A stretch of 64,000 bases of DNA from a virus, in IMG/VR virus record IMGVR_UViG_3300033141_005269, positions 1-64,000 of that record. One strand, 5' to 3'. Positions 4,078 to 53,965 of this stretch are shown piece by piece. Each line of letters starts with the position of its first letter. Position 1 is the first letter of the stretch. The notes under the pieces are model-generated. The model had not been told where the DNA came from. It searched no databases and saw only the letters and a list, made by a program, of their open reading frames with translations. The translations under genes were made by a program, and so were the position numbers.

Positions 4078-4869
4078 ATGAGTGTAGCGAAAAGAGCCTG
4101 GTTACCAGAAGAAATTCAGTTATTGAAGTCAGAGTATGCCACTAACTCGCTTGATGAACTCTGTAAAGTAATAGGTCGTCATAGCCGAAGAGCGATACGA
4201 CAAAAAGCTTATACACTAAACTTAAGAAAACATCCTTGGAAATACGAAGTGAATCATAACTTTTTTGAAGAATGGAATGAAGAGATGGCTTATATCTTAG
4301 GCTTTTTCTGCGCCGATGGTTGTCTGAAAGATAGAAACAGGATTAATTTTTCGAATTGCGAATATGAAATAATTCGTCTTATAAAATTGGCTTTACAAGC
4401 TGAAAATCCGATTTATGAATTCAATCGAGAAAATAGAAAAACACTTTATGTTTTGGAATTTACTTCTAAGAAAATTAAAGAAAAACTCGAAGAGATTGGA
4501 TTGACTGAAAAGAAATCCTCTACTCTCAAATTTCCAAAAGTTCCAATTGATTATTTGAAAGATTTTATTCGTGGATTTTTTGATGGCGATGGGGGACTTC
4601 ACATTTCGAAACGAAACAATCAACTAATTATTTACTTTGCTTCTGGCTCGGAAGCGTTTATAAAGAGCTTGGAAAAGAAATTACGTTGCAAACTCAAATT
4701 GAGAGAAAAGAAAATAAACTTTCGAGGAGGAGTTTATAGATTGAGGTATTATTCAAACGAAGCGAAAACAATTCTATCTTGGTTATATGAAGGCGCTTCA
4801 TTATTCATGAAATCGAAATACGAAAAGTTTATGGTCCTATCGGACATAAGAAGAAACAAAGGAGGTTAA
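4078..4869 (+). CDS. Free-standing two-motif LAGLIDADG homing endonuclease
   Basis: YILGFFCADG and FIRGFFDGDG motifs. Confidence 0.9.
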   Translation: MSVAKRAWLPEEIQLLKSEYATNSLDELCKVIGRHSRRAIRQKAYTLNLRKHPWKYEVNHNFFEEWNEEMAYILGFFCADGCLKDRNRINFSNCEYEIIRLIKLALQAENPIYEFNRENRKTLYVLEFTSKKIKEKLEEIGLTEKKSSTLKFPKVPIDYLKDFIRGFFDGDGGLHISKRNNQLIIYFASGSEAFIKSLEKKLRCKLKLREKKINFRGGVYRLRYYSNEAKTILSWLYEGASLFMKSKYEKFMVLSDIRRNKGG

Positions 4870-11503: not shown

Positions 11504-11767
11504 ATGATAAGAATTAAAAGTTTAGCTCGAGAATTAGACGCAGCAGTGATAACTATTGAATTCGATGATTCAGATGGCAACTTGCACGAAATAACGCATA
11601 AAGTGTCAGCTAGCTTGCTGAATAATATGACGGAAGAAGAAATAAAAAGGAAAATTAAGAATGTAGTCGCCATTAAGAGAATGAATTTAATCGAGACAAG
11701 CTTGCGCGAGAAACTCGAGAAAATGATGGGTGTTGATTTGGAGGCAGGTGAAAGTGCCGAGTTATGA
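11504..11767 (+). CDS. Hypothetical protein
   Basis: AGGTG SD; within the tail operon. Confidence 0.55.
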   Translation: MIRIKSLARELDAAVITIEFDDSDGNLHEITHKVSASLLNNMTEEEIKRKIKNVVAIKRMNLIETSLREKLEKMMGVDLEAGESAEL

Positions 11768-14700
11768 GTTAGCCCTTCCTCCGGGCACGAAGAACATTAA
11801 GATTAAAACTTCAACGCAAGAAATCCCAGTAGACTGGTCGTTTACTCGAGATGGTAAGGACGGAGCAGAGGTAATTGTGCCCCTCATGTCGGGCGACGAG
11901 TTCGTCGGTGAAGTCTTAGAAGGCAACTGGCTAAAAGGTGACGATGGAAGTATTCAAGGACCGTTCACGGCGAAGATAAATAATGGATACTTAGAGATGA
12001 CTGGGAGAAGCAATTCGGCAGGAACATATAGAAGTGGTTGGCTTTCCTCACAAAATAAGATACCACTACTCGATGACTTGATAATTGATATTCATCTCAA
12101 ACTGCCAAGCCATTCCTCTTCGGACGCCTTCGAATTTCAATTCTTGTTGTCGGATACTGGTCAAGGTTCTAATCCTGTTTCAAGTAACTATCTACGGGTG
12201 ATGATTCATACAGACACTTCTTCTTATAAGATTTATGCAGACAAAACAATAAATGGCGTTACTACTCGTCTAATAGATTATGTAACAGTTTCGAATTCAG
12301 AAGGCATCTTCCGGATAAAATTCGAAGAGAATAAAAGCGGACATTATCATACACATATTTATTATCATGATGGATCTGGTTCAGTAGATGAAACAACTGA
12401 TGAAGTCTCTGGAAGTCCATTTCAGCTTGGTCTATCTATATCATCAGCGTACCCCGCATTTAGATTTCCGATATCAGAAACAACCAATCGCACAGTCAGC
12501 AGCGACTTCGTTCGCGTCACCTATCCAGACTTCAAGGTTGTTTACGACTTAGACGACGATGCGGTTATTGGTGAAGGCGAAGAGTTACTCGAGAAGGCCT
12601 GGGATACATCAGGGAATGAGAACCATGGAACGGTGCATGAAGCGACGTGGCGAAGAGATGGGAAGTATGGAAAGGCGCTAGAATTTGACGGTGATGACTA
12701 CGTGGACATGGGTAATGCGTTATCCTCGATTGGAAGCTTTACTATTGAGGCATGGATAAAACCAGATGATATATCTGGCATCAAAACTATCGCAGGAAAA
12801 CTTTCTTATGGCGCCCTAACTGGTCAAGTTGAATGGGGACTTTATATTTGGAATGAAAGAATTGCAGTCAATATAGCGGATGGAACAGTTAGTAAACTAA
12901 GTTTTGCTGGTCAGTATTTAACAGTTGGTATCTGGCAGCATGTCGCAGTAACTTGGACTCAAGGAGGAACTGTTACTCTATATTTAAACGGGGAAGGAAC
13001 ATCCTCTAGCTATGCTGGAGGAACCCTTAATGATACAGAACCACTTAGAATCGGAGCGTCTAGCCCAAGTTTAGGGAATTATTTCGACGGCATCATCGAC
13101 GAGGTTCGCATCTACAACCGAGCCTTAAGCGAACCAGAAATCCAAACACTCTATAATGGCGGCGAAGTTACAAGCGGCTTGGTCGGCGAATGGCTTTTCG
13201 ACGGAGGCAACAATCGAGGCGAAGTCAAATGTTATTCGGAAGACACTGAAGTTTTAACTAGAAATGGCTTTAAACTTTTCAAAGACTTAACTTTCGAGGA
13301 TGAAATTGCGACACTAAATCCGAAAACTGGTTTGATCGAGTATCATGAACCGAGTAGAATAATTTCGTACTTCTATCATGGCAAAATGTATCGTTTTGGA
13401 GGCAAGAACTCTCCAATCGACTTGCTAGTAACGCCGGATCATAATATGTTCGTAAAGGAAGATCGCTGGAGCAAATATCGATTTATGGATGCCGAAGAAC
13501 TAGCTAAGAAAGCGCCATCGAAGCATTATTCTATAAAGAGAGATGCAAGATGGAAGGGAAAAGAGACTGAATGGTTTGAGCTTCCAATTCCAGAAATTAA
13601 GAAGAAAAGAACCTTCAAACCGAGAATTAAAAAGAAAGTTCCAATTGAATCCTTCCTAAGATTTTTGGGTTGGTATTTAGCTGAGGGCTGTGCAATAAAG
13701 CGAAAAGATGGAGCCTATGAAATTTACATAAGGCAGAAAGACCCCGCAAATGTAGAAGAAATAATCAACTCAGTGGAAGGAATGGGCTTTCATGCTTGGT
13801 ATGATGGGAAATATGTCCGAATAGGTTCAAAACAATTATTCAAATACGTGAAACAGTTCGGGAAATCCTATGAAAAATTTGTTCCGGGATTTATAAAAGA
13901 GCTTAGCCCACATCTGATTAAAATTTTCTTTGAAGCTTTGATGAAAGGCGATGGTCATTATCAAAATGGCAAACTTCGTTCCTTCACTACTACTTCTCCA
14001 AAACTTCGCGATGATGTTCAAGAACTCGCCTTGAAACTTGGAATTCCGGTGGTTATAAGAGAGCGTTCGGGAGAATATAATAAATCAATGGCGAAAGGGA
14101 AATGGAGCCAATTTAACTATCGAACTAGCTGGCAATTATCCTTCGCTACGAAACAACCTAATGCCAGAGCCACGAAAGTTGAGGAAGTTGAATACTCTGG
14201 AATGGTCTATGATGTTACGGTTCCAAATCATACATTATATGTTCGAAGAAATGGAAAGGCAGTTTGGTCGGGCAACTGCTACGACACAAACAACAGCGAT
14301 AATGAGTCTGAGTGGATTCGAGTCCTTGACGTGAACCATCAGTTTGAAGGAGACTGCGTAATAGAAAATGGGCTGATAAGGCTGTGGATAAATGAAGGAG
14401 CACATCAAGGTCTAAAATTCTATTGGTGGAATGGCTCATCGTGGACACTTCAAGTTAGTGATATTGGTATCAAAAGAACCAATGACTGCGATTATCCATT
14501 TCTGAAATCTATTAACTTCATTTCAACTGAATCTGCATGCCTGAATATACGACTAGAAGATTCGGCAACACAAGACAATGATTATTTTGTAGATATACAA
14601 ATAACCCTGAAAAGAGGAAGTTATGCCTTTGAAGTTGATTTTCAACAGGCTTATCCGAATGGTTCAATAGAACCAGACATCAGAGGGTTTGGCGGTGGAT

Positions 14701-15491
14701 TTGTTTATGTCCAAGATGACTTGATAGGCGGTGGAAAACTGAGTCTTACTGCGAATAATCCAACGATGACTGACAATTTCATAGCACAGTTTCTCGAAAC
14801 TGGAAATGCTATTCTATTCGTTGTGGCTGTAAACAAGAAACCTGCAGCAAGTAACCAGTGGTTCAGAAGTTGGACAGGAACAACAATAGAACTAGAAAAT
14901 ATTGATAGCAACGATATAGAAGCCACTAAAATGTATTTGGGACTTATTCCTTTCGCTTACGTTTCCAACCTGTTCAAGGAAGCCGAAAACGCAACGCTTG
15001 GCGGTGGAGCAACAGTTGATTCGTCACAGGGTGATGACAGTGGAGATTCGGTGTTGCTGGATGCACAAGGAAACTTTTTGACTGGAACGGGAGATTATGT
15101 ACATTATCAACTGGCTGACGTCCTCAACAAGCTACCAAAAGGTAGGTACCTTCTGTTTGTGAGAGCTAAGGACTCTGCACAGATAACTGACGATTTAAGG
15201 TTCTACGTTAGAAACACCACAGACAACCGCTACCTTAATGAAGAGAACGATAAGGTTACTAGGACCCTGACTGGTTCCTTCGCTTATTATGGTATCGTGT
15301 TCGATTTGACTGACGATGATTCCGGAGATACAGTGAGTTTCGTAGCAGAAAAGGCAACCACATCCACCAATAGCATTTGGGTCGACTACTTCCTCATCAT
15401 TCCAATTTCAAACGGCAGATCATGGGCACAGGATTTGGCACACGGAGCGTTACGAACGCTTACTCAAACACCAAAAGTTTATCCTCGATAA
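11730..15491 (+). CDS. Large tail/adsorption protein with a LamG domain, intein-containing (true start likely GTG 11748 or 11754)
   Basis: LamG motifs ALEFDGDDYV, FTIEAWIKP, WQHVAVT, FDGIIDEVRIYNRALS. Confidence 0.85.
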   Translation: MLIWRQVKVPSYELALPPGTKNIKIKTSTQEIPVDWSFTRDGKDGAEVIVPLMSGDEFVGEVLEGNWLKGDDGSIQGPFTAKINNGYLEMTGRSNSAGTYRSGWLSSQNKIPLLDDLIIDIHLKLPSHSSSDAFEFQFLLSDTGQGSNPVSSNYLRVMIHTDTSSYKIYADKTINGVTTRLIDYVTVSNSEGIFRIKFEENKSGHYHTHIYYHDGSGSVDETTDEVSGSPFQLGLSISSAYPAFRFPISETTNRTVSSDFVRVTYPDFKVVYDLDDDAVIGEGEELLEKAWDTSGNENHGTVHEATWRRDGKYGKALEFDGDDYVDMGNALSSIGSFTIEAWIKPDDISGIKTIAGKLSYGALTGQVEWGLYIWNERIAVNIADGTVSKLSFAGQYLTVGIWQHVAVTWTQGGTVTLYLNGEGTSSSYAGGTLNDTEPLRIGASSPSLGNYFDGIIDEVRIYNRALSEPEIQTLYNGGEVTSGLVGEWLFDGGNNRGEVKCYSEDTEVLTRNGFKLFKDLTFEDEIATLNPKTGLIEYHEPSRIISYFYHGKMYRFGGKNSPIDLLVTPDHNMFVKEDRWSKYRFMDAEELAKKAPSKHYSIKRDARWKGKETEWFELPIPEIKKKRTFKPRIKKKVPIESFLRFLGWYLAEGCAIKRKDGAYEIYIRQKDPANVEEIINSVEGMGFHAWYDGKYVRIGSKQLFKYVKQFGKSYEKFVPGFIKELSPHLIKIFFEALMKGDGHYQNGKLRSFTTTSPKLRDDVQELALKLGIPVVIRERSGEYNKSMAKGKWSQFNYRTSWQLSFATKQPNARATKVEEVEYSGMVYDVTVPNHTLYVRRNGKAVWSGNCYDTNNSDNESEWIRVLDVNHQFEGDCVIENGLIRLWINEGAHQGLKFYWWNGSSWTLQVSDIGIKRTNDCDYPFLKSINFISTESACLNIRLEDSATQDNDYFVDIQITLKRGSYAFEVDFQQAYPNGSIEPDIRGFGGGFVYVQDDLIGGGKLSLTANNPTMTDNFIAQFLETGNAILFVVAVNKKPAASNQWFRSWTGTTIELENIDSNDIEATKMYLGLIPFAYVSNLFKEAENATLGGGATVDSSQGDDSGDSVLLDAQGNFLTGTGDYVHYQLADVLNKLPKGRYLLFVRAKDSAQITDDLRFYVRNTTDNRYLNEENDKVTRTLTGSFAYYGIVFDLTDDDSGDTVSFVAEKATTSTNSIWVDYFLIIPISNGRSWAQDLAHGALRTLTQTPKVYPR
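13230..14276 (+). mobile_element. Intein with LAGLIDADG domain (349 aa)
   Basis: Starts CYSEDTEVLT; block B VTPDH; LGWYLAEG and LMKGDG; ends VYDVTVPNHTLYVRRNGKAVWSGN followed by Cys+1. Confidence 0.92.
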
Positions 15492-15822: not shown

Positions 15823-16137
15823 TTGGTGTGCAGAGTGGCAAGTAAAAAGACATCGAATAATGAAATATACCGTGTATTACTTGACCACAGCGATAGACTC
15901 GGAAGGATTGAAGGCGAAGTCACGAAGATCAATGAATTGAAAGAAACAATTGAAAAGAATTTTAAGGATTTGAAAAAAGATCTGGGGAACCTCGAAACTA
16001 AAGTCCAGGAGAACTCGAATGATATCATAAAGATTAAGCAGACCGCGAGAACGATAACAAAAGTTGGAGGAATCAGTGGCGGAATTATATCATTTGCTTA
16101 TTTTGTCTTTCAACTGCTTGCTAGTATTGGTAAGTAA
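15823..16137 (+). CDS. Coiled-coil protein with a C-terminal TM helix
   Basis: Heptad pattern followed by GGISGGIISFAYFVFQLL. Confidence 0.5.
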   Translation: MVCRVASKKTSNNEIYRVLLDHSDRLGRIEGEVTKINELKETIEKNFKDLKKDLGNLETKVQENSNDIIKIKQTARTITKVGGISGGIISFAYFVFQLLASIGK

Positions 16138-16785
16138 AACTTCTCGAATATGTTGCAATGCCTTTTTACCGAGACCCTTTATCGAAATGTTTTGCTGATT
16201 AACTGCCTCGAAGAAAGCTTCCGGTGAACCATATTCCGAAAGAATAACTTCTGATATCTTCGCGCCAATGCCCGGTAAACCTTGTAGTAAATATTTTTGC
16301 TTATCACACAAACTCATGCTTTTAGCCGGACTGGTTCGAAGAGTGAATGGGTTTTTAATCCCGCCAGCTCGACGAGCAAGCGAGGCAAGAAAACTTACCG
16401 TCCATGAGCGAGAGGGTAGAACTATAATTGGAACCTTCCAACCATATAAAATACTCGAGATTGCACCGGTTATTGAATTGATATCGACTTTAATCCACTT
16501 ACGTGGATATGCAAGCGAACCTTCAATTAGAATTACTGGACTTGCTTCTGTTTCCTTCATACGTTTAAGCTGATCAAAAATTCGATTTTGGAAAATTGAA
16601 CTCATAAAATCGGTTGGAGTTTTTCGTTCAATTATGAAAGATGTCTTCTCATCACCCCCAAAAATTAGGAAGTCCCCAGTTGGAAGTTTCTGAATGTCCA
16701 CTTGAAGTCCTTTCGAAGCGAGTTTATCGCGAAAGTATTTTTTATGATGCTCGCGAGAATCGATTATTATATCCAAACTAATCAC
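16090..16785 (-). CDS. ERCC4/XPF-family nuclease with HhH domain
   Basis: IDSRE, GDF, ERKT..D, LPGIG, IKGLG. Confidence 0.92.
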   Translation of the reverse strand: MISLDIIIDSREHHKKYFRDKLASKGLQVDIQKLPTGDFLIFGGDEKTSFIIERKTPTDFMSSIFQNRIFDQLKRMKETEASPVILIEGSLAYPRKWIKVDINSITGAISSILYGWKVPIIVLPSRSWTVSFLASLARRAGGIKNPFTLRTSPAKSMSLCDKQKYLLQGLPGIGAKISEVILSEYGSPEAFFEAVNQQNISIKGLGKKALQHIREVLLTNTSKQLKDKISK

Positions 16786-21458: not shown

Positions 21459-22313
21459 TTAAGTATTACTATCTAGAGATTTCGATGGTTTTAACAAAGA
21501 AATTGGAGTTTCAAGGTAAATTCGATACATGTTTCGCGGAACTGCAAAGTTATGCTCCCTAGCCTCGATAGTTAAATGCTTCGCGACAACTGGCATGGCT
21601 ATTCGTTTATTGTCCCAATTATCCTCGCCAACTTCATCAAAAGCGTGCTGTAGAGCGCGAATTATGCGATCGTGAGGCATTTCTGGGAGCTGAACTTTCG
21701 GTGGCTTCTTAACTTTGGGGAGTTTTGGTAAATCAACTTTTTCTTTGAAGAAGACCTGATTTTTATAATCCTTTCCGACTACTCCTTCCCGTCTGTGTCG
21801 TCTGCACCACTTAAGCGCTTGTTCAATATGCTCGAAAAGATCATCTGTGGAAGCGGGAATAAATCTGTCTACAACTCGAACAATCGGTAAGCGATGATGA
21901 AAGGCTTTTTGATAAATGATATTATATCCAAGAAAACGTTCTGTTTGACAGTCCCAAATATCGAATAATATCCAATGAATATGTTTGCGCTTGGGCTCGA
22001 TCCTGGTAGGCGAAATGCGCTTAAGTAACTCGCCGAATAGGATGTAATCGTTACCATAAATTTGCTCGTCGCGAAGAAGCTCAACTGCTTTCGAAAATTC
22101 AGGAGTTGATTTAAGGCGAGTTTGGATATCATTTGATGCTTGTTCTAGATTGCGGCTTGAGATCCTAACTACTCCGGAGTCATCAAGCCAGATTGAAACG
22201 TTTTCGCCGTCTCGTTTTTCAGTTAGATGAAGAAGCTGACCAATTAATTCGCGACCTTGATTTCGCAAACGGCGAATCGGTTCCAAATCATAATATTTTC
22301 TCCATCGAGTCAT
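21459..22313 (-). CDS. ATP-dependent RNA ligase family protein
   Basis: TEKRDGEN motif I, LFGE, LFDI, EGVV, FKEK. Confidence 0.8.
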   Translation of the reverse strand: MTRWRKYYDLEPIRRLRNQGRELIGQLLHLTEKRDGENVSIWLDDSGVVRISSRNLEQASNDIQTRLKSTPEFSKAVELLRDEQIYGNDYILFGELLKRISPTRIEPKRKHIHWILFDIWDCQTERFLGYNIIYQKAFHHRLPIVRVVDRFIPASTDDLFEHIEQALKWCRRHRREGVVGKDYKNQVFFKEKVDLPKLPKVKKPPKVQLPEMPHDRIIRALQHAFDEVGEDNWDNKRIAMPVVAKHLTIEAREHNFAVPRNMYRIYLETPISLLKPSKSLDSNT

Positions 22314-48976: not shown

Positions 48977-51590
48977 TTATCCAAGCGAATTAGCTATCAT
49001 AAAAACTTCGAAGCGTTTCATGAATTCATCGAGAGAAATAATCCCCATTACGAATTCCATGACTAAATGCTTTTGCTTCTTGTTTCGAAGGTCAAGAGTA
49101 TCACCAAGAATTTTCATAGTTTTCACAAATTTATCTTCGATACGCAAGGTTATTCCGCCATAAGCATGTAATTGAATAATTTTGTATTCTGATTGAAAGA
49201 GAAGTCTATAAAATAACATGCGTCTAATCGAATGATGCATCCCAAAATATATCCATTTTCCGTTGTCTTTAATTAGAACATGCGGCCCAGCGAATCCACG
49301 ATACCATAGCGTAATCATCGCCATGAAGTTTAATCCTCCAAAAGCTCATTTTGGCTTGCCCAATAAATTTTCAATTTGAATCGGAGAATTCGAAATAACT
49401 GCTTTGCCATTATGCCCAATAAGCCGTTGCGCGTCATCCGGAAATTTAAGTCTAATAATTATCGGTCGTCCAGTTTGTATCGAGAATCGAATTGCTTCGT
49501 AAATATCTGTCCAAGCGCGAACAGGAGGAAGAATGCACCCTTGTCGATAATATCGCATAAGCTTTTTGAATGAAGTGACATGATAAACAATCATGGAAAT
49601 CCTCCAAAAATGAATTAAGAGGAAGTTGCATTTACTTCTTCGATAGATAAGACATATCCTCGAATTTCAAAGCCAAGAATTGTAAACCATGGCTGATTAA
49701 TGAAAGTTATTTTATATGTTTTGCCTACTTCCAAATTCACGAAGCCAATAAGCCGATAGCTCACATCTTGGTCTCCATAGACTCGAGCCCAAACATTTGT
49801 GTGTTGACCGAAGCGTGTGCTATGCTCGATAGCTTGAACCGTCACTGTAACTTCATATGTTTGCCCAGCAAAAGTTAGAGCGTATAAATATGAACCACCA
49901 TAAACTACACCAACAAGAATTCCAAGAACAATGAGTACGGCTATCGCCGAGGCTAATAAGTCATATTTGTCCATTTTAATCCTCCAAATATAAAAAATAG
50001 GGGAGTTTATTTGTAGAAGCTGATTGGATATGGAGGTCTTGTCTGGTCAAACAAAACCGCAAAGACTGAACCCCAAGCTGAAGCAAACCACTGATTAGCT
50101 ACTCGAAACAGCTTGATATCCTCGCACGCCTCGAAAGAGATTATTGGGTCTCGTCTATCGAAGAACACTCGAGTGTTTTTGGGGATTTTCAACTGAATAG
50201 TTGGAGTTCGAATTGTGAAGCCCTTGAATAGAACACCACTGAGCAAATCGTAAGCCTCCAAAACTATTAATCAACTAATCGCTTCGAAATTTTATCATCA
50301 TCTAAAGGTTCGAGACAATTTGGACAAATGAATTTATCAAAATCATAGCTCATTATGAAATGCTCATCGTCGCAACCCTTATGATAGAATCCGTCACGGC
50401 GAAAATGAAATCTGCCAAGAACCTTACAAGTTGAATGTCCTTGATAAATAATATCATCGAGAATAGAGCCACAATGAGGACAGATTATCCTCTTATCTCC
50501 CTTTATTGCATGAGCCAACCGCTTTGCTTCAATTGAATTATTCATATTAATCCTCCAAAATTAGAATTAGTAAACTCGAAAGCCACCACAATTAAGGCAG
50601 AAGTTAGCCCATTTTTCCACAAGCTTTCTGTCGAGGTGATAACCGGGCGGCAAAAACTCTTCTATCTCCTTTTTCTTCTTTTCGAATTTGCAAGTTAGGG
50701 CATTGAAAATTGCCTCGACATCATCTTTTCCGTGGAGAAATTCAAGAACCCTTCGACCTATCTTTTCGGCGTCTTCTTGCTCGATTAAAAACCCATCGTT
50801 ATAAAGACCAACTTGAAACTTGTAATATTTTCGAGTTTCTTTATTTCCATCTTCATCCTCGATTTCGATTTCCATTTCCTCTTTTAGAAAATCATGGCAA
50901 AGAATGTAAACTAAACCCCATATTGGTGTCCAATACCACCAGTTTAGCGAGAAAAATTCTCCGTCTTTGTTCTTCGGGTTAATGCCAACAATGTCCACTC
51001 CCAAGATAAATCCTCCAAATAAAAATGGAAAATTACTTAATTCTGCGATAAGGTATTTGCTCGATTTCGAAGCTGATGAAGACTTTATGTCTTCGAACCT
51101 CGAAAGAAACATCCTTTGCCTCGAGTACTTTAAGTATCATTAGAACCTCATCAAGAGTTATATTTTCTGTATCGTTGGTAATCATTTCTGCGACCTCCGA
51201 TTATCAAAATGAGAGCCTTGAACCAGAACGAATTGATTATTTTTGCGAATTGTTTGGAAAGCTCTTGGGAACTCAAAAGTTTTTCCTCCTCGAAGAGATT
51301 TTAGCTTCGATAAGAATCAGTGCTGAAGAAAGCACGATGACTATCGAGAAGCTCCAGAAAATCATTTGGGTTGAAATCAACTGATAGCCTCCAAAAAGAG
51401 CTTATGCGAGATAATAGACTAAAGGTTTTCCTTTCGAATCAGTAGCTAAAATCCATTTGCCCTTCCATTTGCCGTTTGCCTCGAATTGTTTTTCGAGTAA
51501 GAAGTAGAGGGTATGATAACCGTTACTCCCAAGAATCATTCTTTTTCCGAGCTTGAACCTTCGCAAATTTGAACCTCCAATTATTTTCAC
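48977..51590 (-). other. Array of short hypothetical ORFs, including a membrane-anchored protein at 49615..49974
   Basis: Co-oriented ORFs with TTGGAGG SD motifs. Confidence 0.65.
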
Positions 51591-52036
51591 GGGACAAGGC
51601 GGGAAAGGGCTTTCCCTTACCGAGCCAGCTTTTCAGCTGACCGCTCCACGCAGGGAGGAACTCGCTTCGAGTCTGCCCTACAAGGCTTTTCACTGTTCGC
51701 CTTATGCGATGCCCTTCGAGCTTCATATCTCGAGGAAAGCTTGGAGCTGGGTGCCTCACAACCCGAGCACTTTAGCTCGAGCTGCTTCGTCTTACTGGAG
51801 GTGTTCGACAACTCTCTCCTTTCAGTTATGGAGAAGAGCCGGCACTCGCCCGAGCGGTCACCCGCTACTCTCGCCTTGTTGCCCGCCCTCGAGGCCAGGT
51901 CGGCTCTATGCCTCTGATTCGCTTGGCATAAGGTGGAGGACGCCTTCCAACTCGCAGTCGGAGCTGGAGTTGCCGCCTGCACTCCCGAGGGTTCGGCGAT
52001 GAGCTTCTCCTTTCACTGCAGTCCCGCCTCATTCCC
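51591..52036 (-). ncRNA. Candidate large (about 450 nt) structured ncRNA
   Basis: GC-rich island; 5' GGGAAUGAGGCGGGA pairs with 3' UCCCGCCUUGUCCC; many internal hairpins. Confidence 0.65.
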
Positions 52037-52231
52037 ACTCAAAAATTCGAGAAGGACGATTTACGAGCTGAACCTTACACCCTCGCAAACTCCTTCTCAT
52101 AGTTAATCTTTTTGGCTCAGAGCACGGGATTTCTGCGAAAGCTCTTTTCTGCCCGAAGCTCCTTCTTGCGAGGGAGGATTTGACTCCTCGAGAACCTCGC
52201 CTCAACAGAAAAAGAAAGGGGAATTTGAGAT

Positions 52232-52675
52232 TTATTTAGATTTCTTCTTGGGCTTTTCCTTCTTGACAGAACGCCGAGCGACAATTGCCTTGATTTCGCT
52301 TGGTACTCGTTTGATTGGTTTGATTGGCGTTCCTGCTTTTTCTTCCAGCATCTCCTTTGCTTCCTCGTCCACGAAGCGAATCGCTTTGCTTAATGGACGA
52401 GCCTTCTCGTTATAAGGAGCTCTTGCTTCTTTGAGTTGAGCTTGTAGCTCTTCGAGCTCCTTATGGGCTCTTTGGAGATGCGGGATTACTGAAGTGTCGC
52501 CTTTCTGAATCAGCTGAACAAAAAACTTGTTTAGCTGACCAGACACCGCACTTTTTGCCTGAACAAGAGCTTTGGTTGCCTTGTTCTTCTCGCTGTTTAT
52601 CTCTTTACGCCCGAAGCTTAAGCCCAATCGATAGTAGTAGAGCCTTTCCGCTGGAGTTAAATCAGTGTCGGACAT
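52232..52675 (-). CDS. Basic coiled-coil protein
   Basis: 147-aa ORF with a Lys-rich tail. Confidence 0.65.
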   Translation of the reverse strand: MSDTDLTPAERLYYYRLGLSFGRKEINSEKNKATKALVQAKSAVSGQLNKFFVQLIQKGDTSVIPHLQRAHKELEELQAQLKEARAPYNEKARPLSKAIRFVDEEAKEMLEEKAGTPIKPIKRVPSEIKAIVARRSVKKEKPKKKSK

Positions 52676-53014: not shown

Positions 53015-53019
53015 TTTAG

Positions 53020-53305
53020 CTCACGCTGGACGGTCTGGAGAAGCTCGTTGTTAGCGTTCTCACTTGTCCGTTCCCCGCCCTCCCCTCGCCCGCTACGCTT
53101 TATCCTTAAGGCGAGATTCGTTACGCCTTAAGATTCAGCGCTCGTTTCTACACCGTCCGCCCGCATTACGACGCACGATAAACCATAACGTGCGTCCGTC
53201 GGTACGGTGTATCCCGTCGTGCGTCGTGTCGCCACGAGCGCACTTAACGGTTTGTTGGTTTTTGCACATACGTGCAATAGGCACGGTGTGCTTATCCAAA
53301 CCGTT
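53020..53305 (-). ncRNA. Candidate structured leader RNA of the minus-strand array
   Basis: Nested inverted repeats downstream of a TTTATATA box near 53320. Confidence 0.4.
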
Positions 53306-53699
53306 TGGGTGTCGGAAATATATAAAAAAGGAATATTATTTAAGCCTTTATAACATGCTATAATATATGAAACAAATATTTTATATCGAATATTATATAA
53401 TTTGGTTTATCCTTGACAAACAACCAAAAAGGAATTATGGGCAAGGCACGAATAACAACAAACGCTTTAAACCCTTTAACATCCCTTTATTTTTTGTTTT
53501 TGTCTTTTTGTGAAAACCTTTTTCGAGAATAAGAGCAAATTATGCCTTTTGTATGTTGTTTGTGCCTCAACCTTATTCGATAACTTAACAATAGTAACTT
53601 ATCCCGTATAGAACACTTCAGCTATGTTATACTATACTATTAGAGCTTATTACTCGAAATAATCAAGAAATTTCATAACTCGAATAAGTTTCAAGAATA

Positions 53700-53823
53700 T
53701 CGAGATTAAGCTATAAGCTATTAGCTATAAGCTATAGAGGGCTGGAGGGCTGTTAAACATTCGAGATTAATCCATGCAGAGAAAACAAATTATTCGAGAT
53801 TAATCAAATATTCGAGAAAAATC
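53700..53823. repeat. Direct-repeat cluster in the AT-rich divergent intergenic region
   Basis: 4x AGCTAT(A/T), 2x GAGGGCTG, about 4x TCGAGA(TT/AA)AA. Confidence 0.75.
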
Positions 53824-53965
53824 ACATAGTCCGCCGAGCCTTAAGTAATAATAATAATATTCGGTGTTGGGCAGAGGGAAAGGGAAAGATGCTTAACCAT
53901 TACTTTCCAAGTGAGTACATGGAAATAGGCGAAAATTTAAATAGAGAAAAGCGAAAAAGAGTTCA

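Follow-up and report, generated by a model that had tools for sequence, protein, structure and literature searches.

The leftward gene array of the tailed virus recorded as IMGVR_UViG_3300033141_005269 is interrupted by a GC-rich stretch devoid of recognisable genes (island 1), which raises the question of whether this stretch is selected to fold as RNA, or whether its unusual sequence has another origin. The IMG/VR record has a length of 77,415 bp and carries direct terminal repeats, and the window examined here consists of its first 64 kb (64,000 nt). The virus encodes TerL, a Mu-type portal, an HK97-type capsid protein, a tape-measure protein and further tail genes, and was therefore classed as a tailed virus. 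Between about 53.0 kb and about 28 kb, every gene is encoded on the minus strand. Island 1 is located near the start of this leftward array amid small ORFs, for which no family was found in Pfam or PHROGs.

Position, composition and coding capacity of island 1

The ORF-free gap on the minus strand extends for approximately 610 nt, from the stop codon of the preceding gene (52232) and a T-rich run to the Shine-Dalgarno site of the following small ORF (Table 1), which begins about 15 nt past the closing helix of island 1, with no terminator-like site between the two. The preceding ORF is a real gene and has a single relative (P0012, 57% identical), although searches of Pfam, PHROGs and the Atlas gave neither a family match nor a functional lead. 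An initial annotation of this DNA had proposed a GC-rich structured RNA of about 450 nt within the small-ORF array. The enrichment was confirmed, with a GC fraction of 0.56-0.65 compared to 0.40 for both the window and the genome, whereas the structured stretch was found to measure about 610 nt. Across the 77-kb genome, just one other non-coding stretch reaches this GC level, and a third GC island coincides with a clean capsid-cement ORF of 128 aa. The minus strand of island 1 consists of 31% G, 25% C, 25% A and 19% U, and this excess of G over C and of A over U is a pattern typical of structural RNA. The island contains no internal tandem or CRISPR-like repeats, and lacks terminal repeats and target duplications.

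Table 1. Coordinates of island 1, its predicted substructures and neighbouring features in the window.
Feature	Position	Strand	Remarks
Island 1	51590..52205	minus	entire candidate structured RNA; GC-rich, free of ORFs, folds strongly
5′ rod-like hairpin domain	52010..52141	minus	predicted helices, p 0.72-0.99
Middle domain, 117 nt	51881..51997	minus	helices of the predicted MFE structure
3′ domain, 296 nt	51590..51885	minus	predicted to be closed by a 12-bp helix
11-bp hairpin	51785-51758	minus	predicted within the 3′ domain
Further 3′-domain hairpins	51833-51816, 51732-51717, 51681-51650, 51617-51606	minus	
GUGA and GAAA tetraloop candidates	51866-51855 and 51640-51625	minus	within the 3′ domain
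Alternative 5′ partner of the 3′ terminal strand	52022..52036	minus	8+4 bp with 51604-51591; closure of ~450 nt
3′ arm of long-range pairing with 52704-52682	52153..52175	minus	inverted repeat, 10 perfect bp plus more
P0001, 147-aa basic helical ORF	52232..52675	minus	upstream of island 1; real gene
Downstream small ORF	51402..51577	minus	GGAGG Shine-Dalgarno at 51577-51573; start 51566 or 51541
Island 2, second GC-rich ORF-free island	53015..53320	minus	putative structured leader of the 83-aa zinc-finger ORF

Reading island 1 through stop codons in all six frames gave no match to Pfam, and neither of its longer ORFs had a relative, with the 121-aa minus-strand ORF searched against 1.84 billion representative proteins and the 149-aa plus-strand ORF against a 5.8-billion-protein index. 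Three-base periodicity was not significant (p=0.067), compared to p-values of 0.000-0.016 in three of the four neighbouring genes tested. Homologues, a family match and codon periodicity, any of which would mark a protein-coding gene, were all lacking, in agreement with the earlier view that the overlapping ORFs are spurious. We consider it highly improbable that a small protein, or more than one, has gone unrecognised in the island, either the 121-aa ORF (51982-51617) or a 65-aa Cys-containing product. The first is a 121-codon open frame on the putatively transcribed strand and an AGGAG sequence at approximately 51819 precedes an internal UUG from which the second could be translated, but besides the negative outcome of two exhaustive protein searches, of Pfam and of the periodicity analysis, the 121-aa ORF is of low complexity and rich in Ser, Arg and Ala, its frame has an atypical GC2 > GC1, and sequence of 60% GC is expected to contain an open frame this long by chance.

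Searches for related DNA were likewise negative. Comparison of island 1 with GenBank phages and plasmids by blastn gave nothing, and no homologous DNA was detected in phages, plasmids, IMG/VR, JGI metagenomes, GTDB contigs and one related metagenome-assembled genome (MAG), while exact-motif scans returned seed-length matches without extended similarity. Locus searches of IMG/VR, JGI metagenomes and GTDB contigs anchored on proteins (the 147-aa neighbour, a radical SAM protein, TerL, and alignments A1 and A2) yielded nothing beyond TerL relatives with 22-26% identity and a MAG contig of 2.5 kb. Sampling of this lineage is very sparse, with just two close relatives for TerL (77% and 66% identity) and one for P0001 (57%). 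Two of these three exist only as Logan contigs (P0012, of 145 aa, on one of 19 kb, and the TerL relative P0006 on one of 28 kb). The third is on the 2.5-kb contig, which belongs to the MAG of isolate AUK226; neither elsewhere in this MAG nor in its whole phylum (26 genomes) is there a copy of the island 1 RNA or of P0001. A 24-nt hairpin sequence of island 1 (51735-51712) is identical to G024:C11:65983-66006, in a genome from the small phylum to which the MAG with the TerL relative also belongs. This match was considered as a possible CRISPR spacer, and was rejected as such since it has no flanking repeats and lies within a 765-aa ORF.

Folding strength, strand and predicted domains

Folding was assessed by z-scores of the predicted energy relative to 100 dinucleotide-preserving shuffles. 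The minus strand of island 1 (52205-51595, 611 nt) had a z-score of -4.14, the 296-nt 3′ domain one of -4.05 and the 5′ domain one of -3.63, with 0/100 shuffles as stable in each case, while the middle domain folded alone was weakly better than its shuffles (z -2.2). For 41 control windows of 300 nt spread over the genome, the mean was +0.27 with a standard deviation of 0.93 and a minimum of -1.66, which places island 1 and the second island described below far outside the genome's own distribution. The predicted folding of the stretch therefore exceeds chance, and since the shuffles share its composition, composition alone does not explain these scores.

This last result bears on the possibility that island 1 is inert foreign or decayed DNA, such as a mobile-element remnant, a degraded gene from a GC-richer genome or an assembly chimera, in which folding would be a by-product of composition and repeated words. 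The island does depart sharply in composition from the rest of the genome, where several homing-endonuclease-type ORFs and an intein-like insertion indicate that mobile DNA is frequent, and the 24-nt exact match to an unrelated bacterial ORF and the weak, non-significant 3-base periodicity are compatible with such an origin. We nevertheless regard it as unlikely, given the z-scores obtained with shuffles of the same composition, the lack of protein-family similarity in six frames and of similarity to phage, plasmid, viral or metagenome DNA, the absence of terminal repeats or target duplications, and the occurrence of two separate islands within a single transcription unit, both directly preceding an ORF.

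The plus strand of island 1 also beats its shuffles (z -3.16), and folding energy alone therefore does not fix the strand. The assignment to the minus strand is based mainly on the orientation of the genes, on a composition in which G exceeds C and A exceeds U, and on loop sequences of the GNRA type. The candidate tetraloops (GUGA and GAAA in island 1, GCGA and GUGA in island 2) read as GNRA in the minus orientation only, as had been claimed for island 1, whereas a similar preference claimed for G-U pairs was not recovered, with 21 vs 22 such pairs on the two strands. Neither the fraction of unpaired adenosines nor the GC contrast between stems and loops in island 1 exceeded that of the shuffles.

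Folded as RNA, island 1 is predicted to form three or four domains, comprising a 5′ rod hairpin, a middle domain and the 3′ domain. The 12-bp helix closing the 3′ domain (51885-51882/51593-51590 plus 51879-51872/51601-51594, with a 2-nt bulge) has a pair probability of 0.97 at 37 °C and of 0.93-0.94 at 65 °C, and key predicted helices of island 1 retain p>0.9 at 65 °C. Within the middle domain, a hairpin with a UAUGCC/GGCAUA stem (51930-51907) reaches a probability of 0.98, and the base of the rod domain has a bulge-helix-bulge (BHB) geometry, with an outer CUUUC/GAAAG helix, a central GCAG/CUGC helix, bulges AAA and AGU, and an inner UCCCGU/GCGGGA helix. The hairpins named in the initial annotation, which besides this UAUGCC/GGCAUA element were GCGG-GUGA-CCGC, GCUCUUCUCC/GGAGAGAGU and UCAGCU-GAAA-AGCUGG, were all located in the sequence, as was a further pairing upstream, CCCUCGCAAG/UUUGCGAGGG. 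A terminal helix of about 14 bp had also been described, and does exist as 52036-52022/51604-51591 (8+4 bp), but it is the less stable of two exclusive closures. Constrained folds with this closure of ~450 nt had energies of -249.7 kcal/mol at 37 °C and -61.0 kcal/mol at 80 °C, compared to -257.0 and -62.3 kcal/mol for the 296-nt closure, a disadvantage of 7.3 and 1.3 kcal/mol, respectively. As both closures use the same 3′ strand, the 3′ tail would have two mutually exclusive upstream partners, and could pair with either. Many of the helices consist of mutually complementary CUCGRG words, which makes further alternative pairings available. With such competitors for several of the predicted helices, the exact structure of island 1 is uncertain.

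At the DNA level, the word CTCGAG is present four times in 642 nt where 0.47 would be expected at the genome's own rate, an enrichment of about 8-fold, which by itself raises the predicted stability of island 1 and could reflect protein-binding sites. The island might thus be a DNA element rather than an RNA, either a cluster of palindromic CTCGAG/CTCGRG sites that a viral or host protein would bind, serving in regulation, partition or replication, or a G-rich R-loop primer next to an iteron-bearing AT-rich region, as for ColE1 RNA II and the T4 R-loop origins. The related core TCTCGAA occurs five times in the AT-rich divergent region 1.3 kb away (53529-53818), both strands of island 1 beat their shuffles as would a palindrome-rich element, and the strand corresponding to the transcript is G-rich. 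We still judge a DNA element improbable, because the CTCGAG sites are irregularly spaced and share no flanks, many robust helices contain no CTCG word, and a size of 610 bp at 60% GC is not normal for protein-binding arrays or origins, which usually span tens of bp and are rich in AT; for the R-loop variant, transcription heads away from the AT-rich region.

A second island and predicted long-range pairing in the transcription unit

The other non-coding GC island (island 2) is located 0.8 kb upstream of island 1 in the same leftward transcription unit, between an AT-rich putative promoter region and an 83-aa C2H2-like zinc-finger ORF. Its GC content reaches 0.58, and it folds with a z-score of -4.80 (0/100 shuffles as stable). 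No Rfam match was obtained for island 2 at the gathering score, and those at E<=10 were chance matches. The two islands were also compared as potential paralogues, which was rejected since the best local alignment score was within the shuffled range.

The window was further searched for hBHBh' motifs, in which two 3-nt bulges on opposite strands are separated by 4 bp and flanked by helices. The motif at the base of the rod domain (52141-52124/52027-52010, 5+4+6 bp) belongs to a class seen eight times in the window, compared to 6.4 expected. A second motif, located 0.6 kb further upstream (53046-53025/52735-52714, minus strand), has 19 Watson-Crick pairs (6 + 4 + 9 bp) with bulges AGA and UUA, and is the only one of such strength in the window, as Markov-shuffled genomes give about 0. 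It brackets the entire 83-aa zinc-finger ORF, and the predicted cut would excise 314 nt. A BHB enclosing island 1, which would make the island an intron or an excised circular RNA, was rejected because the enclosing candidates have flanking helices of only 3-4 bp. Elsewhere in the window, another hBHBh' motif (32799-32712, minus strand; GGGU-CGGC-AAU-UGCUCG with CGAGCA-GCCG-UGA-ACCC) would excise 85 nt at the end of an ORF, and by pairing strength alone falls in the chance-frequency class.

Two long-range helices of 10 perfect bp end in island 1. The first (52704-52695/52162-52153) brackets the whole 147-aa ORF, and the second (53046-53037/52010-52001, minus strand) spans a 1-kb block of two genes, with each of them alone being within chance for a 2-kb region. 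Together with the 19-bp BHB motif, these bracketing helices give the whole 53.3-51.6 kb transcript the appearance of being organised by RNA structure, and island 1 may be a module of such a transcript and not an isolated gene.

Proposed role, related systems and host

With a probability of roughly 0.6, we interpret island 1 as a part of the leftward early transcript whose RNA structure is under selection. It would then be a stable structured element that resides within the polycistronic early transcript or is cut out of it. A new large viral non-coding RNA is plausible. Since the island is part of a polycistronic unit and its 3′ end lacks any terminator-like site, a free-standing RNA and a leader or intergenic structure acting in cis have about equal odds. 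In the first case it could act as a free RNA or as a scaffold for a ribonucleoprotein, and in the second it could protect, process or gate the flanking small early genes. A more elaborate model, which we think doubtful, is that islands 1 and 2 and the ORF-bracketing helices direct processing by the splicing endonuclease of the host, and that the RNA thereby released has a two-state terminal helix, is possibly a scaffold or a decoy against host functions, and would be the first multi-domain stable RNA of about 600 nt from a tailed virus of thermophilic archaea. Large structured RNAs of unassigned function are rare and concentrated in bacteria and their phages, and we know of no established example in tailed viruses of archaea. 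Covariation in relatives would make island 1 a novel class of RNA, from a vent-associated virus lineage of which little has been sampled, and the locus, taken with island 2 and the ORF-bracketing helices, would then also offer a tractable case of RNA-level organisation of viral early gene expression at high temperature. Otherwise, island 1 would be an orphan with anomalous composition, found on one metagenomic contig.

Rfam 15 gave no match at gathering score over the whole genome, and for the region 51200-52500 the matches at E<=10 were chance matches of 9-16 bits (miRNA, Transposase-2 and beta-tmRNA models). Island 1 is therefore below the gathering threshold of all families in this database, which covers RNase P, SRP, tmRNA, 6S, group I and II introns, GOLLD, ROOL, OLE, HEARO, riboswitches and ribozymes. 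The initial annotation could not assign the stretch to RNase P, SRP RNA or group I/II introns, in line with the lack of a match at gathering score or a convincing one at E<=10, and its suggestion that the RNA may be new is likewise unaffected by any known family. ARAGORN detected 0 tRNA genes in the 64 kb, and the Rfam tRNA model had no match at E<=10 in 51200-52500, hence the region is not a tRNA gene cluster.

GOLLD and ROOL are large ornate RNAs of phages and prophages (PMC12286853). Like these, island 1 is a candidate RNA of >500 nt with multiple domains and unassigned function that is borne by a tailed virus. It matches neither model even at E<=10, has no adjacent tRNA, and differs further in being a candidate known from a single sequence and in its probably archaeal host, as GOLLD and ROOL are found in Lactobacillales or other bacterial groups.

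Phage early polycistronic mRNAs contain structured elements for processing or stabilisation, such as the RNase III sites of T7 and the put RNAs of HK022. Island 1 resembles these in its location between small early genes just downstream of a divergent promoter region, in the lack of a terminator separating it from the next ORF, and in the long-range helices that bracket neighbouring ORFs, but the T7 and HK022 elements are 60-80 nt in length, compared to 610 nt with several domains for island 1. Archaeal RNAs processed at BHB motifs (rRNA processing stems, introns and circular RNAs) share the geometry found at 52141-52124/52027-52010 of island 1, although no convincing BHB encloses the island as a whole, the internal motif is no stronger than chance matches, and the archaeal host of the virus is a probable one.

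GC-rich islands in the AT-rich genomes of hyperthermophiles were reportedly used as a screening principle for non-coding RNAs by Klein, Misulovin and Eddy in 2002. Island 1 has in common with these islands a sharp rise in GC content within an AT-rich genome, the absence of an ORF and strong folding, whereas the hyperthermophile islands were validated as known or expressed cellular RNAs and island 1 is viral, about 610 nt long, without a family and known from its sequence alone. A GC contrast of this kind is classically associated with RNAs whose fold has to withstand high temperature, and to our knowledge only such RNAs are pushed to about 60% GC in the AT-rich genomes of thermophiles. In the one cellular genome of this environment examined for GC contrast, a vent MAG, the tmRNA and SRP RNA had 57-59% GC with flanks of 37-45%, the same contrast as for the viral islands, and growth at high temperature could therefore be the cause of their GC enrichment.

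The isolate name AUK226 and the contig prefix PB_MBMC are presumed to refer to the Auka vent field in the Pescadero Basin, and on this reading the lineage would be hydrothermal and probably thermophilic. The virus thus probably comes from a hot-vent setting, with its nearest detectable relative in a hydrothermal-vent metagenome. The AUK226 MAG is bacterial, with a tmRNA at 181 bits, but the viral contig in this MAG has 52% GC compared to mostly 36-47% for the other sampled loci, which makes its binning doubtful. An archaeal host is favoured by an XPF-type nuclease, an Hjc-related endonuclease and a T6-ATAT intergenic motif, which is present three times in the small-ORF array and resembles an archaeal oligo-T terminator followed by a TATA box. 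The best solved relatives of the nuclease are Aeropyrum XPF (full length, E 2e-24) and Pyrococcus Hef. Based on these sequence features we consider it fairly likely that the host is an archaeon, and it is probably a thermophile. Matches to sigma-70-type promoters were not enriched in the window (20 vs 29 in shuffles), and a match of 11/12 at 53419-53392 is therefore weak evidence for a bacterial host.

Several further features of the genome were recorded. The XPF-type nuclease is a short protein of 231 aa with ERCC4 and HhH domains, encoded at 16090-16785 (minus). The region of divergent transcription at 53330-53960 is AT-rich (28-37% GC) and is a candidate origin or early promoter-operator region. 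It contains TCTCGA(A/T) at five sites between 53529 and 53818, of which three or four belong to a longer shared consensus near GATTAATCTCGAAT, as well as three overlapping TAGCT(T/A)ATAGCT repeats at 53720-53745. An intergenic motif, YYYWT-TTTTTTATAT, is located at about 53335, 52760 and 50003 on the minus strand, directly upstream of island 2, the 147-aa ORF and a 119-aa ORF, respectively, and looks like an oligo-T terminator combined with a TATA-like promoter. A LAGLIDADG domain is present within a 1253-aa tail-fibre-like protein (11730-15491, plus strand) in an intein-like arrangement, and a free-standing LAGLIDADG ORF is located at 4078-4869 (plus strand). An AAA/VWA gene pair at 40.7-46.3 kb (minus strand) is split into several ORFs interleaved with HTH-domain and family-less ORFs, and this region (searched over 40.7-46.4 kb for group I introns) has no group I intron signal and no GC-rich core. 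CpG-centred words exceed the expectation from base composition throughout the genome (TCGCGA 7.3x, TTCGAG 6.2x and CTCGAG 5.2x), which may be due to NNC|GAR codon pairs, although these would not explain TCGCGA. Finally, an RNA ligase-family protein (PF09414) without a solved relative is encoded at 21459-22313 (minus strand), and could bear on RNA repair or circularisation.
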